This document shows, piece by piece, positions 10,323-23,404 of a DNA stretch of 64,000 bases; position 1 is the first letter of the stretch; each line of letters starts with the position of its first letter. The stretch lies in contig NZ_DATDMY010000003.1 of assembly GCF_036518555.1 (NCBI RefSeq), positions 2,626-66,625 on the forward strand. Direction: 5' to 3'. The position numbers and the translations under genes are program-made. Origin of the DNA: Dokdonella sp. Lineage in GTDB: Bacteria > Pseudomonadota > Gammaproteobacteria > Xanthomonadales > Rhodanobacteraceae. The notes below the pieces were generated by a model. That model searched no databases. It worked only from the letters and a program-made list of their open reading frames with translations, and had not been told where the DNA came from.

Positions 10323-10335
10323 GGCGCCCTCAGGC
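10317..10335. terminator. Short hairpin formed from the two convergent stop codons
   Basis: gcctgagg-cgc-cctcaggc (8-bp stem, no U-tract) contains TGA 10320-10322 and the aguA stop 10330-10332. Confidence 0.3.
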
Positions 10336-11364
10336 CACGAGCACGCCTGCGGGCAGTTGCATCGTGAGGCAATGCACGCTGCCGTTCTGCCAGATCAGCT
10401 CGCGCGCGTCGATCGCGACGACGTCGCGACCGGGGTGGGCGGCGGCGATCACGCGCGCAGCCGCCGCATCGGACGGATCGCCGTACGCGGGCACGACGAC
10501 GCCGCCGTCGACGACGAGGTAATTCGCGTACGACGCCGCGAGGCGCCGGCCTTCGTCGACGATCGCGCGCGCCCACGGCAGCGCGTGCAGGCGATACGGC
10601 GCGCCGTCGGGCGTTCGCAGCGCGGCGATCTCCTCGTGCATGCGCGCGAGTTCGGCATGATGCGGATCGGCCGGGTCGTCGCAGGCCTGCAGCACGATCG
10701 CGTCGCCGGGCGCGAAGCGCGCGAGCGTGTCGACGTGCGCGTCGGTGTCGTCTCCCTCGAGGTAGCCGTGTTCGAGCCATAGCACGCGCTCGACCGCGAA
10801 TGCGTCGCGCAGGCGCGCGTCCATCTCGTCGCGGCTCATGTGCGGGTGACGCTGGTGCAGGCAGCGCCAGGTCGTCAGCAGGCTGCCCTTGCCGTCGACT
10901 TCGATCGCGCCGCCTTCGAGCGCCCAGTCGATGCGTCGATGGCGGGCCGCACCGAACAGCCCGCGTTCGCGCAAGGTTTCGACGAGGCGGTCGTCGCGAC
11001 CACCTTCGTACTTGCCGCCCCAGCCCGTGAAGCGGAAGTCGAGCAGCTGGAAGCCGTCGGCGCCCGCCAGCGTGAGCGGGCCCGAGTCGCGCAGCCAGGT
11101 ATCGTCGTACTCGACGTCGACGAACCGCAGCCGGTCGCGCGCGACGCCGGCTTCGACGAGCAACGCGCGCGCGCGCTCGCGCACCTTCGCGTCGGCGACG
11201 CAGACGACGAGCGGCTCGAAACGTGCGATCGCTGCGGCGAGACCGACGTAGGCGCGTTCAACACGCGCGAGGCGCGGGCCCCAGTCGGTGTCCGCGTGCG
11301 GCCACGCGATGATCACGCCGGCCTGCGGTTCCCACTCGGCAGGCAGGCGCCAACGCGAATCCAT
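10330..11364 (-). CDS. aguA: Agmatine deiminase (peptidyl-arginine deiminase family)
   Basis: LPAEWEPQ, DTWLRDSGP, LEGGAIE, DTDAHVD, GSVHCLTMQ motifs. Confidence 0.9.
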   Translation of the reverse strand: MDSRWRLPAEWEPQAGVIIAWPHADTDWGPRLARVERAYVGLAAAIARFEPLVVCVADAKVRERARALLVEAGVARDRLRFVDVEYDDTWLRDSGPLTLAGADGFQLLDFRFTGWGGKYEGGRDDRLVETLRERGLFGAARHRRIDWALEGGAIEVDGKGSLLTTWRCLHQRHPHMSRDEMDARLRDAFAVERVLWLEHGYLEGDDTDAHVDTLARFAPGDAIVLQACDDPADPHHAELARMHEEIAALRTPDGAPYRLHALPWARAIVDEGRRLAASYANYLVVDGGVVVPAYGDPSDAAAARVIAAAHPGRDVVAIDARELIWQNGSVHCLTMQLPAGVLVA

Positions 11365-11887: not shown

Positions 11888-12013
11888 TCAGCGCTGACGC
11901 GCCTTGAAACGCGGGTTGCTCTTGCAGATCACGAACACCTTGCCACGACGACGCACGACCTTGCAGTCGCGATGGCGCGCCTTGGCGGACTTGAGGGACG
12001 ACAGCACTTTCAT
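11888..12013 (-). CDS. rpmJ: 50S ribosomal protein L36, type B (zinc-independent, YkgO-like)
   Basis: [41 protein letters not shown] (41 aa). Confidence 0.95.
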
Positions 12014-12182: not shown

Positions 12183-12590
12183 TCAGTCGATCGAGAACGA
12201 CTGCAGGTCGACCGGGTTCGTGACGCTGATCGAGCCGACCATGCCCGACGCTTCGTGGGCTTCGCAATGGAACCCGATCGAGCCGTGCGCGGCGGCAGCG
12301 GTAATCGTGATCGTCGCATTCCACGAGGCGTTGCTGACATTGCCGTTGCCGCCGCTGCCGTCGCATCCGTTCGCGCAGCGGAACGAAAGCGGCGAGCCCG
12401 CGTCGGACGCGACGTTGTGGAAGCCACCGTCGTTGACGAACGTGACCGTATCGCCGACCAGCGCTTCGATGTTCGACGGCGTGAACACGAGGCCGGCGCC
12501 ACCGACGTGGATCGTATGGTCCATCGCGCATGCCGGACCTGCGGCGGTGGCGAGGACGGCCAGGACGAGCGACGAGAATGCGGTGCGCAT
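12183..12590 (-). CDS. Secreted plastocyanin/azurin-type blue copper protein (cupredoxin)
   Basis: Signal peptide; [15 protein letters not shown]; type-1 Cu ligands HNV and C-x2-H-x4-M (CEAHEASGM); C-terminal tail [10 protein letters not shown]. Confidence 0.85.
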
Positions 12591-12676
12591 GGGGGCAACT
12601 CCTTCAGTGAGTGGACGATGGACGGGTGTCGCGGTGCTGCGCGCGGGACCGCCGTGGCGCCGGCCCGCGGTCGCGC

Positions 12677-13372
12677 TCACGGCGCGCCGGCTTCGAGCCA
12701 GCGGCCGATCGCGTCGGCGGACGCGGCATCGAGGGTGCGCGCGATCGGAGCCATCACGTGCTGCGTGCTCGTGCGTGGCGCGGCGTCGCGGGCGAGGTCG
12801 GCCAGTCGGTTCGCGACGTACGGCGCGTGCTGGCCACGCAGCGCGGGATAGAGGCGCGCGTGCCCGTTGCGATCGACGTCGGTGCGGCCGCGCGCATCGG
12901 AGCCGTGACAACCCTGGCACGGAGGTATGCCACGCGCGGGATCGCCGTCGCGGTAGATCGTCGCGCCCGCCATCGTGGCGTCGTCCGTCGCATGCCCGGC
13001 CGCGGGCGGCAGGCTCGCGAAATAGGCCGCGAGGTCGCGCATCGCGACGTCGTCGAGGCTCGCCGCCTGCGCGGTCATCGGCGAATCGGGATCGACCCCG
13101 CGCTTGAACGCGACCAGGCGCCAATAGACGTACTGGGCGTTCTGGCCGGCGAGGTTCGGGAACGTCGGCACGAGCGCGACGCCCGCCGGGCCGTGGCAGG
13201 CGCTGCAGACGGTCGCCTTCGCCTTGCCCGCGGTCGCATCGCCGTGCACGCGCCCGACCGAACGCAGGTCGATGACGTCTCCGCTCGCGCAGGCGAGCGG
13301 GCAGCCGGCCAGCATGGCCGCGAACAGGATCCGGCGCAGGGTTTCGATCGCGGTCATGTCCGTCTCCGTCAC
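12677..13372 (-). CDS. Diheme cytochrome c4-type periplasmic cytochrome
   Basis: CSACH and CQGCH, each followed by P.L.GQ.A.Y and a distal Met. GTG 13372 overlaps the mtrB stop; alternative ATG at 13357. Confidence 0.9.
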   Translation of the reverse strand: MTETDMTAIETLRRILFAAMLAGCPLACASGDVIDLRSVGRVHGDATAGKAKATVCSACHGPAGVALVPTFPNLAGQNAQYVYWRLVAFKRGVDPDSPMTAQAASLDDVAMRDLAAYFASLPPAAGHATDDATMAGATIYRDGDPARGIPPCQGCHGSDARGRTDVDRNGHARLYPALRGQHAPYVANRLADLARDAAPRTSTQHVMAPIARTLDAASADAIGRWLEAGAP

Positions 13373-15927
13373 AGGCGGATGTCGAGCAGGATGCCGACGA
13401 GATGGGCGTCGTAGCCCTCGGGTCCGCCGTCGGTGTACACGCGGTGATCGAATGTGCGGGTCGCGCCGAAACCCAGGTAATGCCAGTCGCTGATGCGGCC
13501 GCGCTCGTACCTGTCGAATACGCGCAGCGCGATCCGCTCATGCAGCGGTACGCGCACGCCGATGCCGAGCGAATGGACCCGCCAGGTCATCGGCGGGAAC
13601 GCCCCCGAGCCTGGGCCGTCGCCGCTCACGGTGTCTGCCCAGGCGAGCGCGAGCGGCGATGCGAAGCGGTAGGCGGTCATGCCGCGCGCGTACAGGTAGT
13701 TCCAGCTCGCGTCGACTCGCACGCGGCCGAACGCATGCCCGATCATGGCGCCCGCGGTGTGGTTGCGTTGCGTGTCGTCGGCCCACCAGCGGCCGATGTC
13801 GGGGTAGGTGCCGCCGCCGAGGCGCGGGTCCGAGCCGCTGTCGAGGATCTCATTGATGTTGGCCAGGCGGAGCCGGGAGCGGTCGTAGGCGTAGTAGATG
13901 CTCGCATTGCTGCCGGGCGCGGGCTGCCATTCCCATTGCACGGTCGCCCCGAGCGTGTCGTAGCCGCGACGGCCGAGCACGGCGTCGTAGTCGTTGTCGT
14001 CGCCACGGAGCGAAGCCGTGATCGTCATGTCCTCGCGAGGCATGAAGGTCGCCATGAGGTCGAGCTTGTTCTCGCTGCGGCTCGCGACGTCGTACTTGCG
14101 CAGCGCATCGACGGTGTGGGCAGGCACGCCGTTCGGCGGAGCGATGAAGCCGGGCAGGTCGATCGAGTAGGTGAAATCGTACGGATCGTAGTCGTAGCGG
14201 TCGCCATCCTGGCGCAGCCAGGTGTAGTTCGCGCGCAAGGTCAGCCAGTCGAGCGCGCGGTTCGTCCAGGTCAGTTTCACGCTGCGGTCGTCGACGCTGC
14301 GGCGTTCGCGGTGCGTCGGTTCGTAGCGGCTGAACGCGAGCGTGGCGCCGAGCGTGTCGTGCGCGCCGGCCCTCCAGTCGGCACCGACGTTCGCCTCGGT
14401 CGTCTGCATGTCGAGCGGCAGGCTGCGCACGCGCGTGATCGCGGACGGGTCGGACGCGTCCCAGATGCCCGACTCGCCGGGCACGACGCTGCCTTGCGCA
14501 CCGTTCTCGCTGACGTAGCCGTACTGGCCGGTGAGCGGGTTGTAGGCGAGATAGACGCTGCGATAGTCCTCGCGCTCGTGGCGCACGCCGCCACGCACGG
14601 TGAGATCGGCGCCCGGCTGCAGCACCATGCGCGCGTCGAGCAGGCTCGTGTCGATGCGCATGTCGGCGGTGCGCCGCGACAGCGCCGCCGGCGTGTTCCA
14701 GTTCGCACAGTCGTACAGGAACGGGTTCTGCGGACCGGTCTGCAGGCTGCCGCCGAGGCCGATGCCGAACACGCCCTCGCATGCGATCGGGGCGATCAGC
14801 GTGTCGTCCTGCGTCATGCGGCCGCCGGAGGCGGTGAGCGAGAGTTCGCCGTTGAGCGGCAGCTTGCGCGTGAACGCGGCCTTGAGGTTGTGGTAGTCGT
14901 TGTCGGGCTCGGTCGCGAACTGGCCGGTCGTCAGCGGCGCCGATACCGCACCGGCGACGAGCGGACTCAGCGCGAACGGCATCGCGTAGGTGTAATGCGT
15001 GTAGCGGTCGCGGTAGAACGAGCCGCTGTAGCCGAAATCCATGCGCCAGACGTTGCCCGCATAACGGAAGCCGCCGTCGAGGTTGATCGTCGAATCGTCG
15101 ATCGGCTTGACCGTCTCGAGCACGCCGCCGTCGTCGGGGAACGGGAAGTTGAAGAAGAACGGGCCGCCGAACGGCCGGGCGCCGTGGCGCCGTTCGTCGG
15201 TCGCGTTCGCGTAGGCGGTCCATTGCGGCGTGAGGAAGACGCTGAAGCCGAGTCCCTGCTTCTCGCGCGTGACCCCGAGCGTGCGCGCGGGGGTCGCGGC
15301 CGACAGCGCCGAGATCGCGGCGGGCGAACTCGCGCCGGCGACGTAACCCGCGGGCAGCGTCAGGCGATCGGTACCGACGCCGTTCCAGATCGGCTTCGCC
15401 GTATTCGTGACGAGGTTCGGCATGGTGCGCAGGAATGCCTGCACCTTGTAGCTGCCGGCGCGCCCGAACACGGCCTGGTAGTACTCGTCGTCGTCGCTGA
15501 CGCGGCTCGCGCGCACGCTCGCGTAGCTGCCGTCGACGGGGCGTTCGGCATCGAACGCGAGCAGCGCGAGGACGATGCCGCTGTCCCAGTCGGCGTAGCG
15601 GTTCCACAGCGCGTTGTCGTCGTCGCCGCCCGTCGCGACGGCGCCGATGCTGAGCACGCCGGACGTTTGCCAGTTCCCGTGCGGGGTGACTGCAGGCGAC
15701 GGCGGCGGGCACGCGTAAAGGTGGCCGGTCGGGCTGCGGTGTACGCCGGCTTCCAGCCAGCTCGTGCCGCGATCGTCGCACCCGCCGATGGTCGCCCCCG
15801 CATTCGGGTCGAGTTCGTTCGCGCGCCAGGTATCGACGCCGACGCCGCTGTCGGCGTGTGCGTTGGCCGCGACGGCCGCGATCGCGACGGCGAGCGGCAG
15901 CCGGCGGAACAGGCGAGACGTGGACAT
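13369..15927 (-). CDS. mtrB: MtrB/PioB-family decaheme-associated outer-membrane beta-barrel
   Basis: 852 aa, signal peptide, alternating aromatic beta-strands, TVKPIDDST and EPDNDYH motifs; directly downstream of a decaheme cytochrome. Confidence 0.9.
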   Translation of the reverse strand: MSTSRLFRRLPLAVAIAAVAANAHADSGVGVDTWRANELDPNAGATIGGCDDRGTSWLEAGVHRSPTGHLYACPPPSPAVTPHGNWQTSGVLSIGAVATGGDDDNALWNRYADWDSGIVLALLAFDAERPVDGSYASVRASRVSDDDEYYQAVFGRAGSYKVQAFLRTMPNLVTNTAKPIWNGVGTDRLTLPAGYVAGASSPAAISALSAATPARTLGVTREKQGLGFSVFLTPQWTAYANATDERRHGARPFGGPFFFNFPFPDDGGVLETVKPIDDSTINLDGGFRYAGNVWRMDFGYSGSFYRDRYTHYTYAMPFALSPLVAGAVSAPLTTGQFATEPDNDYHNLKAAFTRKLPLNGELSLTASGGRMTQDDTLIAPIACEGVFGIGLGGSLQTGPQNPFLYDCANWNTPAALSRRTADMRIDTSLLDARMVLQPGADLTVRGGVRHEREDYRSVYLAYNPLTGQYGYVSENGAQGSVVPGESGIWDASDPSAITRVRSLPLDMQTTEANVGADWRAGAHDTLGATLAFSRYEPTHRERRSVDDRSVKLTWTNRALDWLTLRANYTWLRQDGDRYDYDPYDFTYSIDLPGFIAPPNGVPAHTVDALRKYDVASRSENKLDLMATFMPREDMTITASLRGDDNDYDAVLGRRGYDTLGATVQWEWQPAPGSNASIYYAYDRSRLRLANINEILDSGSDPRLGGGTYPDIGRWWADDTQRNHTAGAMIGHAFGRVRVDASWNYLYARGMTAYRFASPLALAWADTVSGDGPGSGAFPPMTWRVHSLGIGVRVPLHERIALRVFDRYERGRISDWHYLGFGATRTFDHRVYTDGGPEGYDAHLVGILLDIRL

Positions 15928-15939
15928 CGTTCCTCCGGC

Positions 15940-16992
15940 CTATTCGTGGAACTTCGGACCCGACGGCGCGTTCGAGCCGTGGATGTTCGCGTGGCATGTC
16001 ACGCATGCGCGCCCCATCGCGCGTTCGTCCGGATGCGCACCGTTGCCGAGCGAACCGGGCGTGTGCAGGTCGTTCGGATGGCGCAGGCCCGAATGGCATT
16101 GCTGGCACAGGAACGGCAGCGGCGTCACCAGCAACGTCTGCTGGTTGGACCCGTGCGGCGTATGGCAGTTGAGGCAGCTTTCGCGAACGGGCGCGTGCTC
16201 GAACAGGAACGGGCCGCGCTTGTCGGCGTGGCACTGGTAGCACGTCTCGTTGACGGTGTTCGTCTTGAGCAGCGGAGAGGTGATCGAGCCGTGCGGGTTG
16301 TGGCAGTCGTCGCAGCTCATCTGGCCTTCGGGCAACGGCATGTGCGAGCGCCGGTCGAACTGCAGTCGCACGTCGCGATGGCATTGGGCGCAGGTATCGT
16401 TGATCGACGCCTTCGCCATCAGGCCTTCGGCCGAGAACTTCGCCATCGGGTTGTGGCAGTCGCTGCAGGAGAGCCCGTTGCGCTGATGGACGGACCCGAG
16501 CCAGTGGTCGCGTGCGCCGCCCTCGTGGCAGGCGAGGCACGTCTTCGCCTGCGTCTCGATCGACGTGCCCGAATCCTTCGTGTAGCCGATGATGAGGCCC
16601 TTCGCGCCCGGATCCTTCGCGTGCGCCGATCCCGGGCCATGGCAGGTCTCGCAGACGGGGATCGACGCATCGGCCTTGTTCGCGGCGTGCAGGCCGAGTG
16701 CGTGGAAGGTGTGCGTGAAGTGCTCGCTCTCGAGCTGATGGCAGGCGATGCAGGTACGTTCGCCGACCGCAGTCGCCTCGTGGGCAGCGGGATTGTCCGC
16801 GACGCGTGCCTTCGCGAACCCCGGTGCGACGCCCGTCATGGCCGTGCCGGGCTGCACGTCGCTGCCGGCCAGGCCCGTCGACGGCAGCGATCTGGACAGT
16901 TCCTCGCGGGTCTGCTGCGCCAGCACCGGTGCGAGCATCGCGCACCCGAGCAGGAACGCGAGCACGGGTCGAAGCGCGTCAGTGCCTCGCAT
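15940..16992 (-). CDS. mtrA: Decaheme c-type cytochrome (DmsE/MtrA/PioA/MtoA family)
   Basis: Ten CxxCH counted: CIACH, CETCH, CLACH, CSDCH, CAQCH, CDDCH, CYQCH, CLNCH, CQQCH, CVTCH; KRGPFLFEHAPV and HGSN motifs; signal peptide. Confidence 0.95.
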   Translation of the reverse strand: MRGTDALRPVLAFLLGCAMLAPVLAQQTREELSRSLPSTGLAGSDVQPGTAMTGVAPGFAKARVADNPAAHEATAVGERTCIACHQLESEHFTHTFHALGLHAANKADASIPVCETCHGPGSAHAKDPGAKGLIIGYTKDSGTSIETQAKTCLACHEGGARDHWLGSVHQRNGLSCSDCHNPMAKFSAEGLMAKASINDTCAQCHRDVRLQFDRRSHMPLPEGQMSCDDCHNPHGSITSPLLKTNTVNETCYQCHADKRGPFLFEHAPVRESCLNCHTPHGSNQQTLLVTPLPFLCQQCHSGLRHPNDLHTPGSLGNGAHPDERAMGRACVTCHANIHGSNAPSGPKFHE

Positions 16993-18349
16993 GGGCAGGC
17001 CTCGTCGCCACGATGGTGGGGTCGCAGACTTCGTTCGTGCGCGCGAGCGTGCGTGCCGCCGCGCACGCGTCGATCGACGCGTCCGGACGGTGGCTCGTGC
17101 GGTCGAGCAAGGCGAACAGCGCCTTCGCGTCGAGTCGCGGGTCCAGTTCGAGCAGCAACGCGATCGCGCCGGTCACGTGCGCGGTCGCGAGCGAGCTGCC
17201 GGATGCGTAGTCGTAGTGCCCGCCGGGCTCGAGCGTGAGGATGTCGCGCCCGGGCGCGGCGAGCGTCGGCCGCGTCGTCGCGGGCGCATCACTGCTGCGC
17301 ACGCCGATCACCCCCGCGACGTCGACCGGGAAGCCGTCCGTGTTCCCGTCCGGAGGGACCGCGCCCACGACGATGACGCCGCGCTCCACCGCATTCGCGA
17401 GCAGCTGTTCGAGCAGCGGGTCGGACGGGCCGCCGAGGCTGAGGTTGATCACGCGGGCGCCGGAGGCGATCGCGTCGGCGAGTGCCTGCGCGAGCGTGAA
17501 CGTATCGCAGCGCGCGGCGCCGCCGTCCGCTTGCACGGGCCAGCATGCGCGCAGCGCGCGGATACGCGTGGCCGGCGCGACCCCGACGATGCCGACCCCG
17601 TTGTTCGCGACCGCGGCGATCACGCCGGCGACTTCGGTGCCATGGCGGTCGCGCGCGGCGGGCGCGGTCGCTGCGGTCGTGAAGTCGCGCTGCGCGACGA
17701 TGCGGCCGGCGAGGTCCGGGTGCGACGCGTCGATGCCGGCGTCGACGACCGCGACCTCGACCCGCGCGCCGCTCGCCCAACGCTGTGCGGCGGCGGCGCC
17801 GATACGGGAGAATCCCTGCTGCAAGCCGACATACGGATCGTTGTAACCGGACGCGTCGTGGCCCTCGGGGGCTGTGGCCGGCCCCATCGGGGCCGCTGCG
17901 TCGCCCGACTGCGCGTAGGTGCGGAATTCCTGCAGCGGCTGCGCCAGGCTCACGCGCCGGTCGCGGTGCAGGCGCGCGAGCGTGTCGTCGCGATCGATGC
18001 CTGCCGGGAGTTCGTAGAGCATGCAGCGCAGGCGAAGCGCCTGGATCGTCCACGCGGACACTTCGCGCAGCGAGTAGTCGCTCGCGATGCGACGCGCGAG
18101 CGCGCGCGTCCGTTCGCTGCCGCCCGCGTAATCGGGCAGGCCCGCGTAACCGCGCGGGGTCCCGGCGGCCTGTGCCGCGGGGTCGGCCCTGTCGGCGATC
18201 GCGACGACGATCATGCGCGGCGCGGCGGCGACGTCCGCGTCCGGCTGTTCGATCGCGCGCACCGGCGCCGGCGCGAGCGCACTCCCGCACGCGAACGCGA
18301 CGACCGCGCATCGCAGCGCATGGATCGAACCGCGGGTGCGCGCGCGCAT
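16979..18349 (-). CDS. Secreted S8 (subtilisin-family) serine peptidase
   Basis: Catalytic triad VVDAGID / HGTEVAG / SGSSLA; signal peptide; 3' end overlaps the mtrA start by 14 bp. Confidence 0.9.
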   Translation of the reverse strand: MRARTRGSIHALRCAVVAFACGSALAPAPVRAIEQPDADVAAAPRMIVVAIADRADPAAQAAGTPRGYAGLPDYAGGSERTRALARRIASDYSLREVSAWTIQALRLRCMLYELPAGIDRDDTLARLHRDRRVSLAQPLQEFRTYAQSGDAAAPMGPATAPEGHDASGYNDPYVGLQQGFSRIGAAAAQRWASGARVEVAVVDAGIDASHPDLAGRIVAQRDFTTAATAPAARDRHGTEVAGVIAAVANNGVGIVGVAPATRIRALRACWPVQADGGAARCDTFTLAQALADAIASGARVINLSLGGPSDPLLEQLLANAVERGVIVVGAVPPDGNTDGFPVDVAGVIGVRSSDAPATTRPTLAAPGRDILTLEPGGHYDYASGSSLATAHVTGAIALLLELDPRLDAKALFALLDRTSHRPDASIDACAAARTLARTNEVCDPTIVATRPAHARH

Positions 18350-18356
18350 CGTGCGG

Positions 18357-18986
18357 TCACCTGTCCGAGGCATTCGCGATCGGTTCGACGAGCAGCACTC
18401 CCGGCGCCGCGCGCAACCGTGCGACGACGTCCGGATCGGCGCGCCCCGGCGCGACCGGCGCGAGCGTGTAGATGGTGCCGCCGTCGTTCGTGCCGACGAT
18501 GCGCAGGCCCCGCTCACCGAGCAGACGCTGCAGTTGGCCGACGCTGAGTTCGGGCGACGGAACGAAGCGAAGGCTCGCGCGCGCGGGCAGCGTTTCGGGA
18601 GCGCTCAGCGTACGGTAGGCGGGTGCATCGTCGGCGCGATGGCGCTCGATCGCCCACGTCGCGAGCGCGACGAGTCCGATCGCCTGGATCGCGACCGTGG
18701 CGGCGAGTGCGCGCAGCAGGTGCCGCGGTCGCGCGGGGCCGGCGTCGATCGCCTGTTCGGCGTCGATGCGTGCGAGAAGCCGATCGAACGCGGGCCGCAC
18801 CTCGCCGACGACGCGGGTGTCGACGTCGAGTCCCGCATGCACGCGCGACTGGAACGCGTATTCGTCGCGGCAGTCCGTGCACGCGGCAAGGTGTGCTTCC
18901 GCGAGCGAGCGGTCGGCAGCGGAGGCGGTGCCGTTGATGAGCCACGGGATGAGGTCCCAGGTCCGGCGATGCTGTGGAGACGGCAT
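18357..18986 (-). CDS. Zinc-binding (zf-HC2/ZAS) transmembrane anti-sigma factor
   Basis: H...LIPWLING...HLAACTDC motif, one TM segment, small C-terminal extracytoplasmic domain; 2 bp after the sigma stop. Confidence 0.85.
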   Translation of the reverse strand: MPSPQHRRTWDLIPWLINGTASAADRSLAEAHLAACTDCRDEYAFQSRVHAGLDVDTRVVGEVRPAFDRLLARIDAEQAIDAGPARPRHLLRALAATVAIQAIGLVALATWAIERHRADDAPAYRTLSAPETLPARASLRFVPSPELSVGQLQRLLGERGLRIVGTNDGGTIYTLAPVAPGRADPDVVARLRAAPGVLLVEPIANASDR

Positions 18987-18988
18987 GG

Positions 18989-19606
18989 TCAAGCCCGTGC
19001 GATATGGGAGGGGAGTGGAGCGTCGCCGCCGAGTGCGGGCAGGGTGTTGCGCAGGCGCAGGCGCGCATGGAACATGCGCGCCTTCACCGTGCCGACCGCG
19101 CAGTTCATGATCGCGGCGATTTCCTCGCACGACTGGCCGAGGAAGTACGCGAGCTCGATCGTCATGCGTTGCTCGTCGGGGAGCAGCGCGAGGCCGTGCC
19201 GCAACCAGTCGCGCAATTCGGCCTGGCGCGCGTCGGACTCGTCGGGCGCCGGATCGTGCAGCGCCTCCTGGTCGCGCTCGCCGGCGCCGTACGTCGGCTC
19301 GAGCGGGTGATCGCGCAGATGCTTCATGAGACAGCGGTAGGCGATGCCGATGATCCACGTCCGCACCTTCGACTCGCCGCGGAAGCTGCCCGCGGTGCGC
19401 CAGACGACCCAGAGCGTCTCGTTGACCATCTCCTCGATGACGTCGCGGCGGGCGGTGAAGCGCGAGAGGAAACGCGAAAGCAGGCCGTGGTAGCGCCGAT
19501 ACAGCTGCTCGAACGCGGCGCGATCCTGGCGCGCGATCGCGCGCAGCCAATCGAGCTCCGTCGCGGAACCCGAGGCAGGGTCGTCGTCTGTCCTTGTCTG
19601 TTCCAC
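18989..19606 (-). CDS. ECF RNA polymerase sigma factor
   Basis: DRAAFEQLYRRY, VWRTAGSFRGESKVRTWI, SCEEIAAIMNCAVGTVKARMFHAR; GTG start chosen because GGAG lies upstream. Confidence 0.9.
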   Translation of the reverse strand: MEQTRTDDDPASGSATELDWLRAIARQDRAAFEQLYRRYHGLLSRFLSRFTARRDVIEEMVNETLWVVWRTAGSFRGESKVRTWIIGIAYRCLMKHLRDHPLEPTYGAGERDQEALHDPAPDESDARQAELRDWLRHGLALLPDEQRMTIELAYFLGQSCEEIAAIMNCAVGTVKARMFHARLRLRNTLPALGGDAPLPSHIARA

Positions 19607-19770
19607 GCGATCCAGGCTCCGCCGGTGGCCGTACTCGATCGTGGGTACCCGCTGCGTGCCAAAAGGTTGCGCCACGAGCCGTCCAGGTGCAATGGTGGCG
19701 GCCGCCGATGGACCACGGACGCGATCGGAGGGTTGGATCGCAGGCCGCCACTGCCCGGGAGTGACAGCGC

Positions 19771-20538
19771 TTGCGGCACTTTCGCCGAAAATCGAATGCG
19801 TTCGTGGCCCGCGCGTGCCTGGTCGCGGTGGGCGCGGTCCTGCTCGACGCGCATGCCGGCGCGCACGCGTCACCTGCGTGCGGCGGCGCCGTGGGCTTCT
19901 CCTCCGACAACGTCTATCGCGGCATCAGCCTGACCGATGGTCGCCCGTCCGCGCTCGCGGACGCCCACTGCTCCTTCGGCGACGGCTGGGTCGCCGGCGC
20001 CGGGTTCGCCTCGGTCCATCTTGCAGGCCGTTCGCGCAATGCGCAGCTCGGCGCCTACCTCGATCGACGCTGGCAGATCGACGACGACTGGAGCGCGAAG
20101 CTCGGCATCGTCCACTACGACGCCTTCCGCCACGGCCGCGAGGACGGGCTGCGCTACGACGAGGTCAACGCCGTGCTCGGCTACCGCGGCTCGTGGCGCG
20201 CGACGATCGCCTGGTCGCCCAACGCGACCGACATGTACTTCGGCGGCTCCGGGAAGACGCATCGAACCGCGTGGGCCGAGACCACGTTCCACCGCGCGCT
20301 CGTCGACCGGCTGTCGCTCGACGTCGGCCTCGGCATCGCACGGCCGGGAGGCCGCGGCGAGCGCAGCTATCGCTACGGCAGCATCGGCGCAAGTTACGGC
20401 ATCGGCGATGTCTATCTCTACGCGAGTCGCATCTGGACCGACTCGGTGGCCTGGTCGTACGCCTACCTCGGCCAGGAGTTCATCGCGACGTTGCCGTCGC
20501 AGGCGCGTTGGGTCGGCTCCGTCGTCTGGACCTTCTGA
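19771..20538 (+). CDS. TorF-family putative porin (TIGR02001-like)
   Basis: SSDNVYRGISLTDGRP motif, beta-strand pattern, C-terminal Phe; start codon uncertain. Confidence 0.7.
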   Translation: MRHFRRKSNAFVARACLVAVGAVLLDAHAGAHASPACGGAVGFSSDNVYRGISLTDGRPSALADAHCSFGDGWVAGAGFASVHLAGRSRNAQLGAYLDRRWQIDDDWSAKLGIVHYDAFRHGREDGLRYDEVNAVLGYRGSWRATIAWSPNATDMYFGGSGKTHRTAWAETTFHRALVDRLSLDVGLGIARPGGRGERSYRYGSIGASYGIGDVYLYASRIWTDSVAWSYAYLGQEFIATLPSQARWVGSVVWTF

Positions 20539-22081: not shown

Positions 22082-22753
22082 CTAGAGCCCGACCAGCGGC
22101 TGCACCGCGCGCGCGAACCAGCCCGGGAAGCGCAGCGGCGCGTCGAGGGCGGCGACGCAGATGCACGGGCCACCCGGCGACGTGACGGGGCGATGGGTCA
22201 CGTCCGGCCCGAGGTCGGCGACATCGCCTGCACTGAAGTGCCCGAGCTCGTCCTCGTACGCGCCGCGCAGGATGTGGGTGAGTTCCGTGCTTCCGTGGCC
22301 GTGCACCGGCATGCCTTTGCCGGGACCGATCCTGAGCAGGATCAGCGTATCGCCGCTGGTCCTGGCAGCGCGAATCATCTCCACGCCCGGACCCATCCAG
22401 CGCCATTTCAGCGCGCGCCATGAGCGACCGAAGTACGCATGCAGCGGCTTTGGAAGGCCGTCGGGATCGGCGGGGAGATCGGGAGCGTCGCGCACGAATC
22501 CGCCGCGTGCCGGCGTGGCGTCGAGGCGCTCGGCCATCGCATCGCGCAGCCGCCGCTCGCGATCCACGTCCACCGGTCGCGGCTTCTGCTGCCCCAGCAG
22601 CGCGCCGCCGACGCGCTCGGCGGATGCGAGCACGGCGCGGCAATGGTGGCACAGCTCCAGGTGGGTGGCGGCTACCGCGGCCATTTCCGGAGAGAGTGCG
22701 CCCGTCGCATAGCTCACGACGGTGGCTTCATCGAGGTGGTGGCGTGGTGTCAT
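22082..22753 (-). CDS. chrR: ChrR-family anti-sigma factor (ZAS plus cupin)
   Basis: MTPRHHLDE...YATG...HLELCHHC; cupin PVHGHGSTELTHILRGAYED; ATGA overlap with rpoE. Confidence 0.9.
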   Translation of the reverse strand: MTPRHHLDEATVVSYATGALSPEMAAVAATHLELCHHCRAVLASAERVGGALLGQQKPRPVDVDRERRLRDAMAERLDATPARGGFVRDAPDLPADPDGLPKPLHAYFGRSWRALKWRWMGPGVEMIRAARTSGDTLILLRIGPGKGMPVHGHGSTELTHILRGAYEDELGHFSAGDVADLGPDVTHRPVTSPGGPCICVAALDAPLRFPGWFARAVQPLVGL

Positions 22754-23295
22754 ACCGAGTCCTGCATTCGCGACTGCAGCTTCAGGAACGCACGCCGCAG
22801 GTAGGATTTGACCGTGCCGAGCGGCATGCCGAGTTCGTCGGCGATCTCCTGATGGGATTTCGCCTCGAAGTACGACATGCGGATGAGGCGGCCCTGAACC
22901 GCCGGCAGGCTTTCGATGCGCGCACCGAGGTCGACGCAATCGGCATGGCTTTCGGCGGACGTACCATAACCTTCGCGCTCCTCCGGCTGGTCTTCCGGCA
23001 TGAGGTACCACTCCGGTTCGCGACGGATGCGATCGATGTGAAGGTTGCGCGCGATCCGGAACAGCCAGGTCGAGACGCTGCCGCGTGCCGCGTCGAAGCC
23101 GGCGGCGTTCTGCCACAGGCGAAGGAACGCTTCCTGGGTCAGCTCCTCCGCGACCGCCTCGGGCGACCCCAGCCCCTTGAGGTAGAGCCGCACCCGGGGC
23201 GCGAAGTGGTCGTAGATGCGCAGGAAGCCCTCGCGGTCGCCCGTACGCGCGACCGCCGTCATCTGCCAGGACCAATAGCGAGCATCCTCGCTCAT
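22750..23295 (-). CDS. rpoE: RpoE-type ECF sigma factor (ChrR-paired, singlet-oxygen group)
   Basis: GDREGFLRIYDHFAPRVRLYL, FDAARGSVSTWLFRIARN, SHQEIADELGMPLGTVKS. Confidence 0.9.
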   Translation of the reverse strand: MSEDARYWSWQMTAVARTGDREGFLRIYDHFAPRVRLYLKGLGSPEAVAEELTQEAFLRLWQNAAGFDAARGSVSTWLFRIARNLHIDRIRREPEWYLMPEDQPEEREGYGTSAESHADCVDLGARIESLPAVQGRLIRMSYFEAKSHQEIADELGMPLGTVKSYLRRAFLKLQSRMQDSV

Positions 23296-23404
23296 GGCGG
23301 GCTCCGGTTTCGATCGGGTCTGCGTCGGCCGAATCGGCGTCACGCGCGGCGTCATCGTCATGCTAGTGCAAAGGCGGGCCGAAGTGGGCCTCATGAGCAG
23401 CCTT

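Follow-up and report, generated by a model that had tools for sequence, protein, structure and literature searches.

A candidate ECF sigma, zinc-finger anti-sigma and subtilase cassette upstream of an MtrAB electron conduit in Dokdonella

The window analysed here is a 64-kb stretch (64,000 nucleotides) of contig NZ_DATDMY010000003.1 from the Dokdonella sp. assembly GCF_036518555.1. It has a G+C content of 70%, and the closest matches of its proteins are from Dokdonella. Seven co-directional minus-strand genes in this window encode, in order, an extracytoplasmic function (ECF) sigma factor, a zinc-finger anti-sigma factor, a secreted S8 (subtilisin-type) protease, the decahaem cytochrome MtrA, the outer-membrane barrel MtrB, a dihaem cytochrome c4-like protein and a cupredoxin, as read from the open reading frame list, domain scans and direct reading of the strand. 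The favoured, reasonably probable explanation is that the first three genes form an autoregulated sigma/anti-sigma/subtilase cassette, which captured mtrA-mtrB-c4-cupredoxin as downstream operon genes in this Dokdonella lineage. ECF-dependent expression of mtrAB is very likely, judging from the placement of a conserved promoter motif in this genome and its relatives. Transcription would start at a GCAACCTTT-N13-GGTACCCA promoter (19672-19639) and run through all seven genes. An original prediction, made from the DNA letters alone, had proposed that the sigma factor switches on the conduit as its dedicated regulator, or alternatively that the protease serves to mature MtrA or MtrB. The present analysis largely upholds sigma control of mtrAB, but neither the dedicated role nor the maturation alternative.

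Gene order, junctions and promoter

Genes were called from the open reading frame list, Pfam and NCBIfam scans, and direct reading of the minus strand, on which all seven lie. The sigma gene (18989..19606) starts with GTG at 19606 and stops with TGA at 18991-18989; two nucleotides (cc) further on, the anti-sigma gene (18357..18986) begins with ATG at 18986. Its TGA (18359-18357) is followed after seven nucleotides (ccgcacg) by the ATG of the protease gene at 18349 (16979..18349). The protease TGA (16981-16979) lies inside mtrA (15940..16992), whose ATG is at 16992, producing a 14-nt overlap (16979..16992) with a GAGG about 8 nt 5' of the mtrA ATG. A 12-nt gap leads to mtrB (13369..15927), which overlaps the c4 gene (12677..13372) by 4 nt, and an 86-nt gap precedes the cupredoxin gene (12183..12590), the last of the putative operon. 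The junctions in gene order are therefore +2, +7, -14, +12, -4 and +86 nt. The spacings in the original prediction (gaps of 2 and 7 bp, and a 14-bp protease/mtrA overlap) were exact, and its sigma, zinc-binding anti-sigma (ZAS), S8 and mtrAB identities hold in the Pfam and NCBIfam scans. Its title word "head-on" was wrong, as the cassette and mtrAB run head-to-tail.

The ECF-type promoter GCGCAACCTTTTGGCACGCAGCGGGTACCCACGA (19639..19672, minus strand) lies directly upstream of the sigma gene and ends about 33 nt before its GTG. It combines a -35-like element, CAACCTTTT (19669-19661), with a -10-like element, GGTACCCA (19649-19642), and conforms to a consensus, GCAACCTTT-N13-GG(T/C)AC(T/C)(C/T)A, seen upstream of sigma genes in 54 of 70 loci, across families. 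A position weight matrix (PWM) built from 54 such instances scores the window promoter at 32.2 bits, the top match in the 4.04-Mb genome. Within the window, no second match reaches 8 bits, and none is found before mtrA or the in-cluster cupredoxin gene; these two genes therefore lack an ECF promoter of their own.

Scanning the genome on both strands (~8.1 Mb) yields four matches at 19 bits or more, all of which are explained. After the window promoter, the next three (27.9, 19.2 and 19.0 bits) each precede, by 28-34 nt, the gene of a secreted cupredoxin paralog outside the window (sites C63:2591-2624, C285:6460-6493 and C92:8187-8220). These cupredoxin-domain paralogs of 262, 254 and 413 aa share the motif FRCA(N/Q)GCDG. 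A second ECF sigma/anti-sigma pair comes next after the paralog on C285.

The motif, mtrAB and the cassette in relatives

A protease-alignment search of the genome collection returned at least 555 loci, and the best 80 were taken for locus comparison, with neighbourhood counts from tblastn of all window proteins against them. Three independent architectures place mtrAB behind an ECF-type motif. The fused S8-mtrA layout of the window recurs in Dokdonella fugitiva (L002, L003), Tahibacter (L012-L015), metagenome-assembled genomes (MAGs) of Rhodanobacteraceae and Lysobacterales (L017-L019, L040) and genome G012 (L086). In the nine readable fused loci (L012 and L040 are unreadable), the distance from S8 stop to mtrA start ranges from -14 to about +5 nt, and no motif occurs near the junction. 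This tight junction is kept in D. fugitiva, Tahibacter and several MAGs, and an overlap or 2-5-nt spacing is retained down to about 55% protease identity. The linkage on whose presence in related genomes the original prediction had staked itself is found in D. fugitiva, Tahibacter and MAGs.

In several relatives whose mtrAB lies upstream of the cassette or apart from it, the same motif stands before mtrA. Loci of the Rhodanobacter type have the order mtrA-mtrB-c4-torF-sigma-anti-sigma-S8 and carry a separate motif copy before mtrA, scoring 23.4 (L047), 27.4 (L095), 31.3 (L103), 26.7 (L104) and 16.4 bits (L098). The unlinked mtrA of Pseudolysobacter antarcticus (L100) has its own copy at 31.0 bits, and in a congeneric Dokdonella (L082), whose cassette is 19 kb away, the mtrA copy scores 23.3 bits. 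A whole-genome exact scan of the congener G070 with CAACCTT-N13-GGYAC found three matches, preceding the sigma gene, mtrA and a cupredoxin-like protein, against none for a reversed-pattern control. Exact-pattern matches in P. antarcticus likewise include the sigma gene, a cupredoxin and mtrA. Because the window's own genome holds only four matches in ~8.1 Mb, the five to six strong matches in ~9 kb of mtrA-upstream sequence are far beyond chance. The proposal that the sigma factor switches on mtrAB, for which the window itself offers a single ECF promoter upstream of the sigma gene, is well supported at the level of promoter sequence, since the motif fronts mtrA in relatives whose mtrAB is unlinked or upstream of the cassette.

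Several observations weigh against the favoured explanation. Among 20 sampled mtrAB-c4 loci without the fusion, 19 of them from the same family and the other from a neighbouring one, nine lack the motif and three more have only a weak one. TorF, a small outer-membrane barrel, is kept beside the cassette yet does not lie 3' of an ECF-type motif. In addition, an internal sigma-70 promoter may reside in the protease gene; a consensus scan found none there, a scan that is weak at 70% G+C. Across relatives, ECF control of mtrAB appears from these motif placements to be frequent, not universal.

The torF gene of the window (19771..20538, plus strand) is divergent from the sigma gene, and its product scores 43.6 bits against TIGR02001, just under the cut-off of 47.15. 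A torF gene is found near the cassette, divergent or directly upstream, in 52 of the 69 loci that this count takes in. TorF was considered as a regulon member and rejected, as either the motif separates torF from the sigma gene or torF reads divergently.

One seven-gene transcript from the ECF-type promoter is likely, given a single such promoter, junctions that overlap or are very short, and an in-cluster cupredoxin gene lacking the promoter motif borne by its paralogs. No terminator-like signal above chance occurs between the genes; the two sites found are at chance level. Promoters within coding sequence are common, and a separate one within the 3' portion of the protease gene could instead account for most mtrAB expression, with the tight junction reflecting compact packing and no regulatory coupling. 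We consider this improbable: several relatives with mtrAB separate from the cassette have the ECF-type motif before mtrA, the junction is conserved over the range of protease identity given above, and the sigma-70 consensus scan is blank.

The 86-nt c4-cupredoxin spacer (12591-12676) contains a G+C-rich hairpin, CGCGGGCCGGCGCCACGGCGGTCCCGCG, followed by a strong ribosome-binding site, GAAGGAG. The hairpin may act as an intercistronic stabiliser or attenuator, modulating transcription rather than ending it. In the Lysobacterales MAG locus L019 (14552-14647), the 36-nt sequence TCAGAACCGCAGGTTCTGATCACTCTGAACGCCCAA occurs 3' of the mtr cluster as two identical copies with a spacing of 60 nt; these may represent a small palindromic repeat element.

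The cassette itself extends well past the mtr genes. In 70 of the 74 related loci with enough flank, the sigma and anti-sigma genes immediately precede the S8 gene, an arrangement that is therefore not due to chance. Relatives of the protease number in the thousands by homology search, and, counted from the protease-alignment search, 555 or more species genomes carry the cassette, plant-pathogenic Xanthomonas among them. Hosts include Dokdonella, Pseudolysobacter, Tahibacter, Rhodanobacter, Dyella, Frateuria, Xanthomonas, Nevskia and Steroidobacteraceae, together with the Burkholderiales genera Rhizobacter, Roseateles, Ideonella, Acidovorax and Paraburkholderia. Only 11 of the best 80 cassette loci have mtrAB within 10 kb, so the cassette is older and broader than its mtrAB link. 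The mtrB gene is itself common in the order, being present in 114 of 301 genomes. In a maximum-likelihood S8 tree, the fused state requires at least two changes and the mtr-upstream (Rhodanobacter) layout falls in a different major clade, indicating that the mtrAB link arose or was kept repeatedly.

This distribution is at odds with a dedicated mtr regulator. The cassette is a module of wide occurrence, and the genes it most commonly targets in its vicinity encode cupredoxins; in other lineages they encode cytochrome b561 and an FdtA-like cupin. The motif precedes cupredoxins in Pseudolysobacter, Tahibacter and MAGs, and a divergent cytochrome b561 and FdtA/WxcM-like cupin pair in Xanthomonas, Rhodanobacter and Dyella. 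Occasional targets are a CPBP-type protease, a PEP-CTERM protein and a secreted protein without assignment. The recurring theme among predicted targets is envelope redox proteins. In Xanthomonas and Rhodanobacter, the divergent pair, with its cupin of 145 aa, has two back-to-back promoter copies. The pair lies ~3.5 kb upstream of the cassette, at ~4.7-5.1 kb of each locus (L035, L036, L048-L053, L060, L062, L074, L077 and L079).

The same counts bear on the idea that the protease is a dedicated maturase, either of MtrA or MtrB, the alternative offered in the original prediction by analogy with PioA processing, or of cupredoxin-domain proteins. The protease does adjoin mtrA in the window, and its closest NCBIfam models include maturation subtilases (mycosin and QhpE), all below cut-off. 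Besides the rarity of nearby mtrAB, cassettes of Xanthomonas, Steroidobacteraceae and Burkholderiales keep the protease with neither mtrAB nor a cupredoxin nearby. At 350 aa, MtrA is also not unusually long: its first haem follows the signal peptide by about 55 residues, and it has no long PioA-like extension. A maturase role is accordingly very improbable.

Sigma factor, anti-sigma factor and protease

The sigma factor (205 aa) is an ECF (group 4) sigma-70 protein of about 200 aa with only the sigma-2 and sigma-4 regions. It matches Pfam Sigma70_r2 (36.5 bits), Sigma70_r4_2 (47.7 bits) and Sigma70_ECF, and scores 80.8 against TIGR02937 (cut-off 42.9). No named NCBIfam sigma model matches it above its cut-off, the best being PRK12515 (106 against 236). 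Peptides of its Xanthomonas orthologue are absent from the library of 86 sigma factors of Rhodius et al. 2013; the Xanthomonas ECF18 and ECF22 members of that library were considered and are different proteins. Peptidase, subtilisin and TorF contexts go unmentioned in the main text of Casas-Pastor 2021; the ECF Hub supplements may describe such a context.

The anti-sigma factor (209 aa) is a single-pass ZAS protein, with a transmembrane helix at about residues 89-112. Its N-terminal HxxxCxxC anti-sigma domain matches zf-HC2 at 27.2 bits (cut-off 22.2), includes the sequence HLAACTDC, and retains HxxxCxxC in the homologues inspected. The H-x3-C-x2-C zinc motif, the single helix and an 86-residue periplasmic domain are conserved across the family. 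This C-terminal domain (residues 124-209; 18360..18617, minus strand) is modelled by AlphaFold2 as a beta-alpha-beta-beta-alpha-beta fold with a pLDDT of 82.6. Its best Foldseek match in the PDB is a prosubtilisin propeptide (3cnq_P; E 0.023, probability 0.99). The same list holds other subtilisin and furin prodomains, and also many unrelated ferredoxin-like folds with similar scores.

The protease (456 aa; up to 84% identical to its closest Dokdonella matches) has a signal peptide, a prodomain (~45-145) and a catalytic domain matching Peptidase_S8 (PF00082) at 109.8 bits. It has the Asp-His-Ser triad in S8 order with the oxyanion Asn, as judged by alignment: across 76 homologues D203, H236 and N302 never vary, and S386 is found in 75, the remaining one having a gap. 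Its prodomain has the same beta-alpha-beta-beta-alpha-beta topology in the AlphaFold2 model. An hhalign comparison of the anti-sigma domain with this cognate prodomain gives a score of 30.0 (E 1e-4), against control maxima of 19.1 for 100 column shuffles and 23.9 for 100 block shuffles. The alignment spans helix 1 to the last strand, which ends in LAEP in the anti-sigma factor and LAQP in the prodomain.

Three protease cysteines (109, 269 and 281) are invariant in the 76 homologues, Cys109 lying in a prodomain strand, and Cys429 is found in 51 of 76. As the number of invariant cysteines is odd and one is in the prodomain, they may form a redox- or metal-sensitive latch.

The resemblance of the periplasmic domain both to a subtilisin propeptide and to the prodomain of the protease suggests that the protease binds or cleaves the anti-sigma factor. 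We give a direct interaction, which follows from modelled folds and profiles, not quite an even chance. Against it, the propeptide likeness is modest, with a Foldseek E value of 0.02 in a very common fold class and blank sequence searches. The domain has no Pfam Inhibitor_I9 match even at E of 10 or below, so that it does not belong to the I9 family by sequence, and a PDB sequence-profile search with it returned nothing relevant; one homologue has a weak Fervidolysin_NPro-like match (E 0.18).

Under the favoured cassette mechanism, the ChrR-like zinc-finger anti-sigma factor would hold the sigma factor at the membrane, and its periplasmic domain would mimic a subtilisin propeptide, being related to the prodomain of the protease encoded alongside it. 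The secreted S8 protease would bind this domain and, on a periplasmic cue, most likely degrade it as the site-1 cut. Site-2 cleavage by an RseP-type protease would then release the sigma factor; an RseP-type (M50) site-2 protease is encoded in the genome. The sigma regulon would consist of envelope electron-transfer proteins, namely cupredoxins and an MtrC-less MtrAB together with its partner c4, joined in other lineages by cytochrome b561.

The protease could instead be a regulon output serving envelope quality control or feedback, with the anti-sigma domain sensing something else. Proteases encoded in ECF operons are well known as effectors or negative regulators, for example MucD/HtrA in algU-mucABCD and in Xanthomonas rpoE-rseA-mucD, and the moderate strength of the propeptide similarity is compatible with such a role. 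A MucD-like effector is a credible alternative and an unlikely one. The protease remains beside the anti-sigma gene in the 70 loci counted above while other regulon genes vary, and the periplasmic domain shows a specific likeness to the prodomain of that same protease.

Relation to known systems

The cassette resembles the RpoE-RseA-DegS-RseP and AlgU-MucA-AlgW systems in that an ECF sigma factor is held by a single-pass anti-sigma factor with a periplasmic domain. As in both systems, the site-1 enzyme would be a periplasmic serine protease, the genome encodes an RseP homologue and the sigma promoter is predicted to be autoregulated. The cassette differs from them in that the protease is an S8 subtilase with a prodomain, not an HtrA/PDZ protein, and is encoded in the sigma operon. 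The anti-sigma factor is of the ZAS type, its periplasmic domain is propeptide-like, not RseB-binding, and its cleavage is a proposal here. An N-terminal H-x3-C-x2-C with an upstream His is shared with RpoE-ChrR, RsrA and RslA, and there is a weak match to the ChrR-family model TIGR02451 (16.9 bits). Unlike ChrR, which is soluble with a C-terminal cupin, the anti-sigma factor spans the membrane and ends in a small beta-alpha-beta-beta-alpha-beta domain. A ChrR-type (cupin) anti-sigma factor and an RpoE-like sigma factor are separately encoded at ~22082-23394 (minus strand), ~2.5 kb from the cassette, so the window holds two different ZAS/ECF systems.

Subtilisin propeptides of the I9 type (3cnq, 1scj) have the same topology as the periplasmic domain and provide its best structural match. 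The C-terminal strand of the anti-sigma domain and its short tail might occupy the substrate cleft. In contrast to these propeptides, the domain is the C-terminal part of a different, membrane-anchored protein, and the likeness is one of fold and profile.

MtrA is an MtrA/DmsE-type periplasmic decahaem cytochrome, scoring 252 bits against TIGR03508 (cut-off 192) with 10 CXXCH motifs at residues 81-330. MtrB (852 aa) is an MtrB/PioB outer-membrane barrel by its PF11854 score (293.6 bits against 23); its TIGR03509 score of 216.9 is slightly under the cut-off of 240. The mtrB gene is single-copy in the genome. TIGR03507 finds no MtrC/OmcA in the 98%-complete genome, nor in the cluster, so the conduit is of the MtoAB/PioAB type and not a Shewanella-type MtrCAB. 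The c4-like protein has Cytochrom_C and Cytochrome_CBB3 matches with two CXXCH motifs, and the cupredoxin (135 aa) is a type-1 protein matching Copper-bind. Just 3' of the cupredoxin gene lies an rpmJ-like gene for the short ribosomal protein L36 (~11888-12013, minus strand) with a TTTACA-like element 5' of it, and beyond this an agmatine deiminase-like gene (10330-11364).

Like MtoAB of Sideroxydans and PioAB of Rhodopseudomonas, the conduit combines a decahaem MtrA and an MtrB/PioB barrel, without MtrC, with small soluble carriers. These carriers are a dihaem c4 and a cupredoxin, not MtoD/CymA or the high-potential iron-sulfur protein PioC. The rus operon of Acidithiobacillus ferrooxidans, which encodes Cyc2, the c4 cytochrome Cyc1 and rusticyanin, similarly couples an outer-membrane haem conduit to a dihaem c4 and a type-1 copper protein. 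It differs in that its conduit is the fused porin-cytochrome Cyc2 where the present one is MtrAB; the host here is a neutrophilic Xanthomonadales heterotroph in which Fe(II) oxidation is a prediction. Judged from its components, the MtrAB-c4-cupredoxin chain looks built for electron uptake, such as Fe(II) oxidation.

The pioABC operon is under FixK and the Shewanella mtr genes are under CRP. To our knowledge, little is known about the regulation of MtrC-less (MtoAB/PioAB-type) conduits in neutrophilic bacteria. The comparative Mtr and Fe(II)-oxidation papers searched do not mention sigma or ECF regulation, and the literature search turned up no account of an ECF cassette containing a subtilase, of a subtilisin-type site-1 protease acting with an ECF sigma factor, or of ECF control of Mto/Mtr. 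The cassette is new as an ECF signalling variant with a subtilase and as a kind of regulator for MtoAB/PioAB-type conduits. More speculatively, and with considerable doubt, it may represent an undescribed ECF signalling class in which the anti-sigma sensor mimics the propeptide of a dedicated subtilase. In such a class, the protease would be held or inhibited until it destroys the anti-sigma factor on a periplasmic redox or metal cue, to which the invariant prodomain cysteine may be relevant. The module would then act as master switch for a chain of electron uptake, running from MtrAB through c4 to cupredoxin, in aerobic Xanthomonadales of soil and water.

For MtrC-less conduits, which are candidate Fe(II)-oxidation or electron-uptake systems, these results name a concrete candidate regulator, define a promoter motif and predict a regulon, each of which is testable in cultured Dokdonella fugitiva, Tahibacter aquaticus, Pseudolysobacter antarcticus and Rhodanobacter. 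If it proves true, propeptide mimicry would add a new mode of coupling between a protease and an anti-sigma factor.

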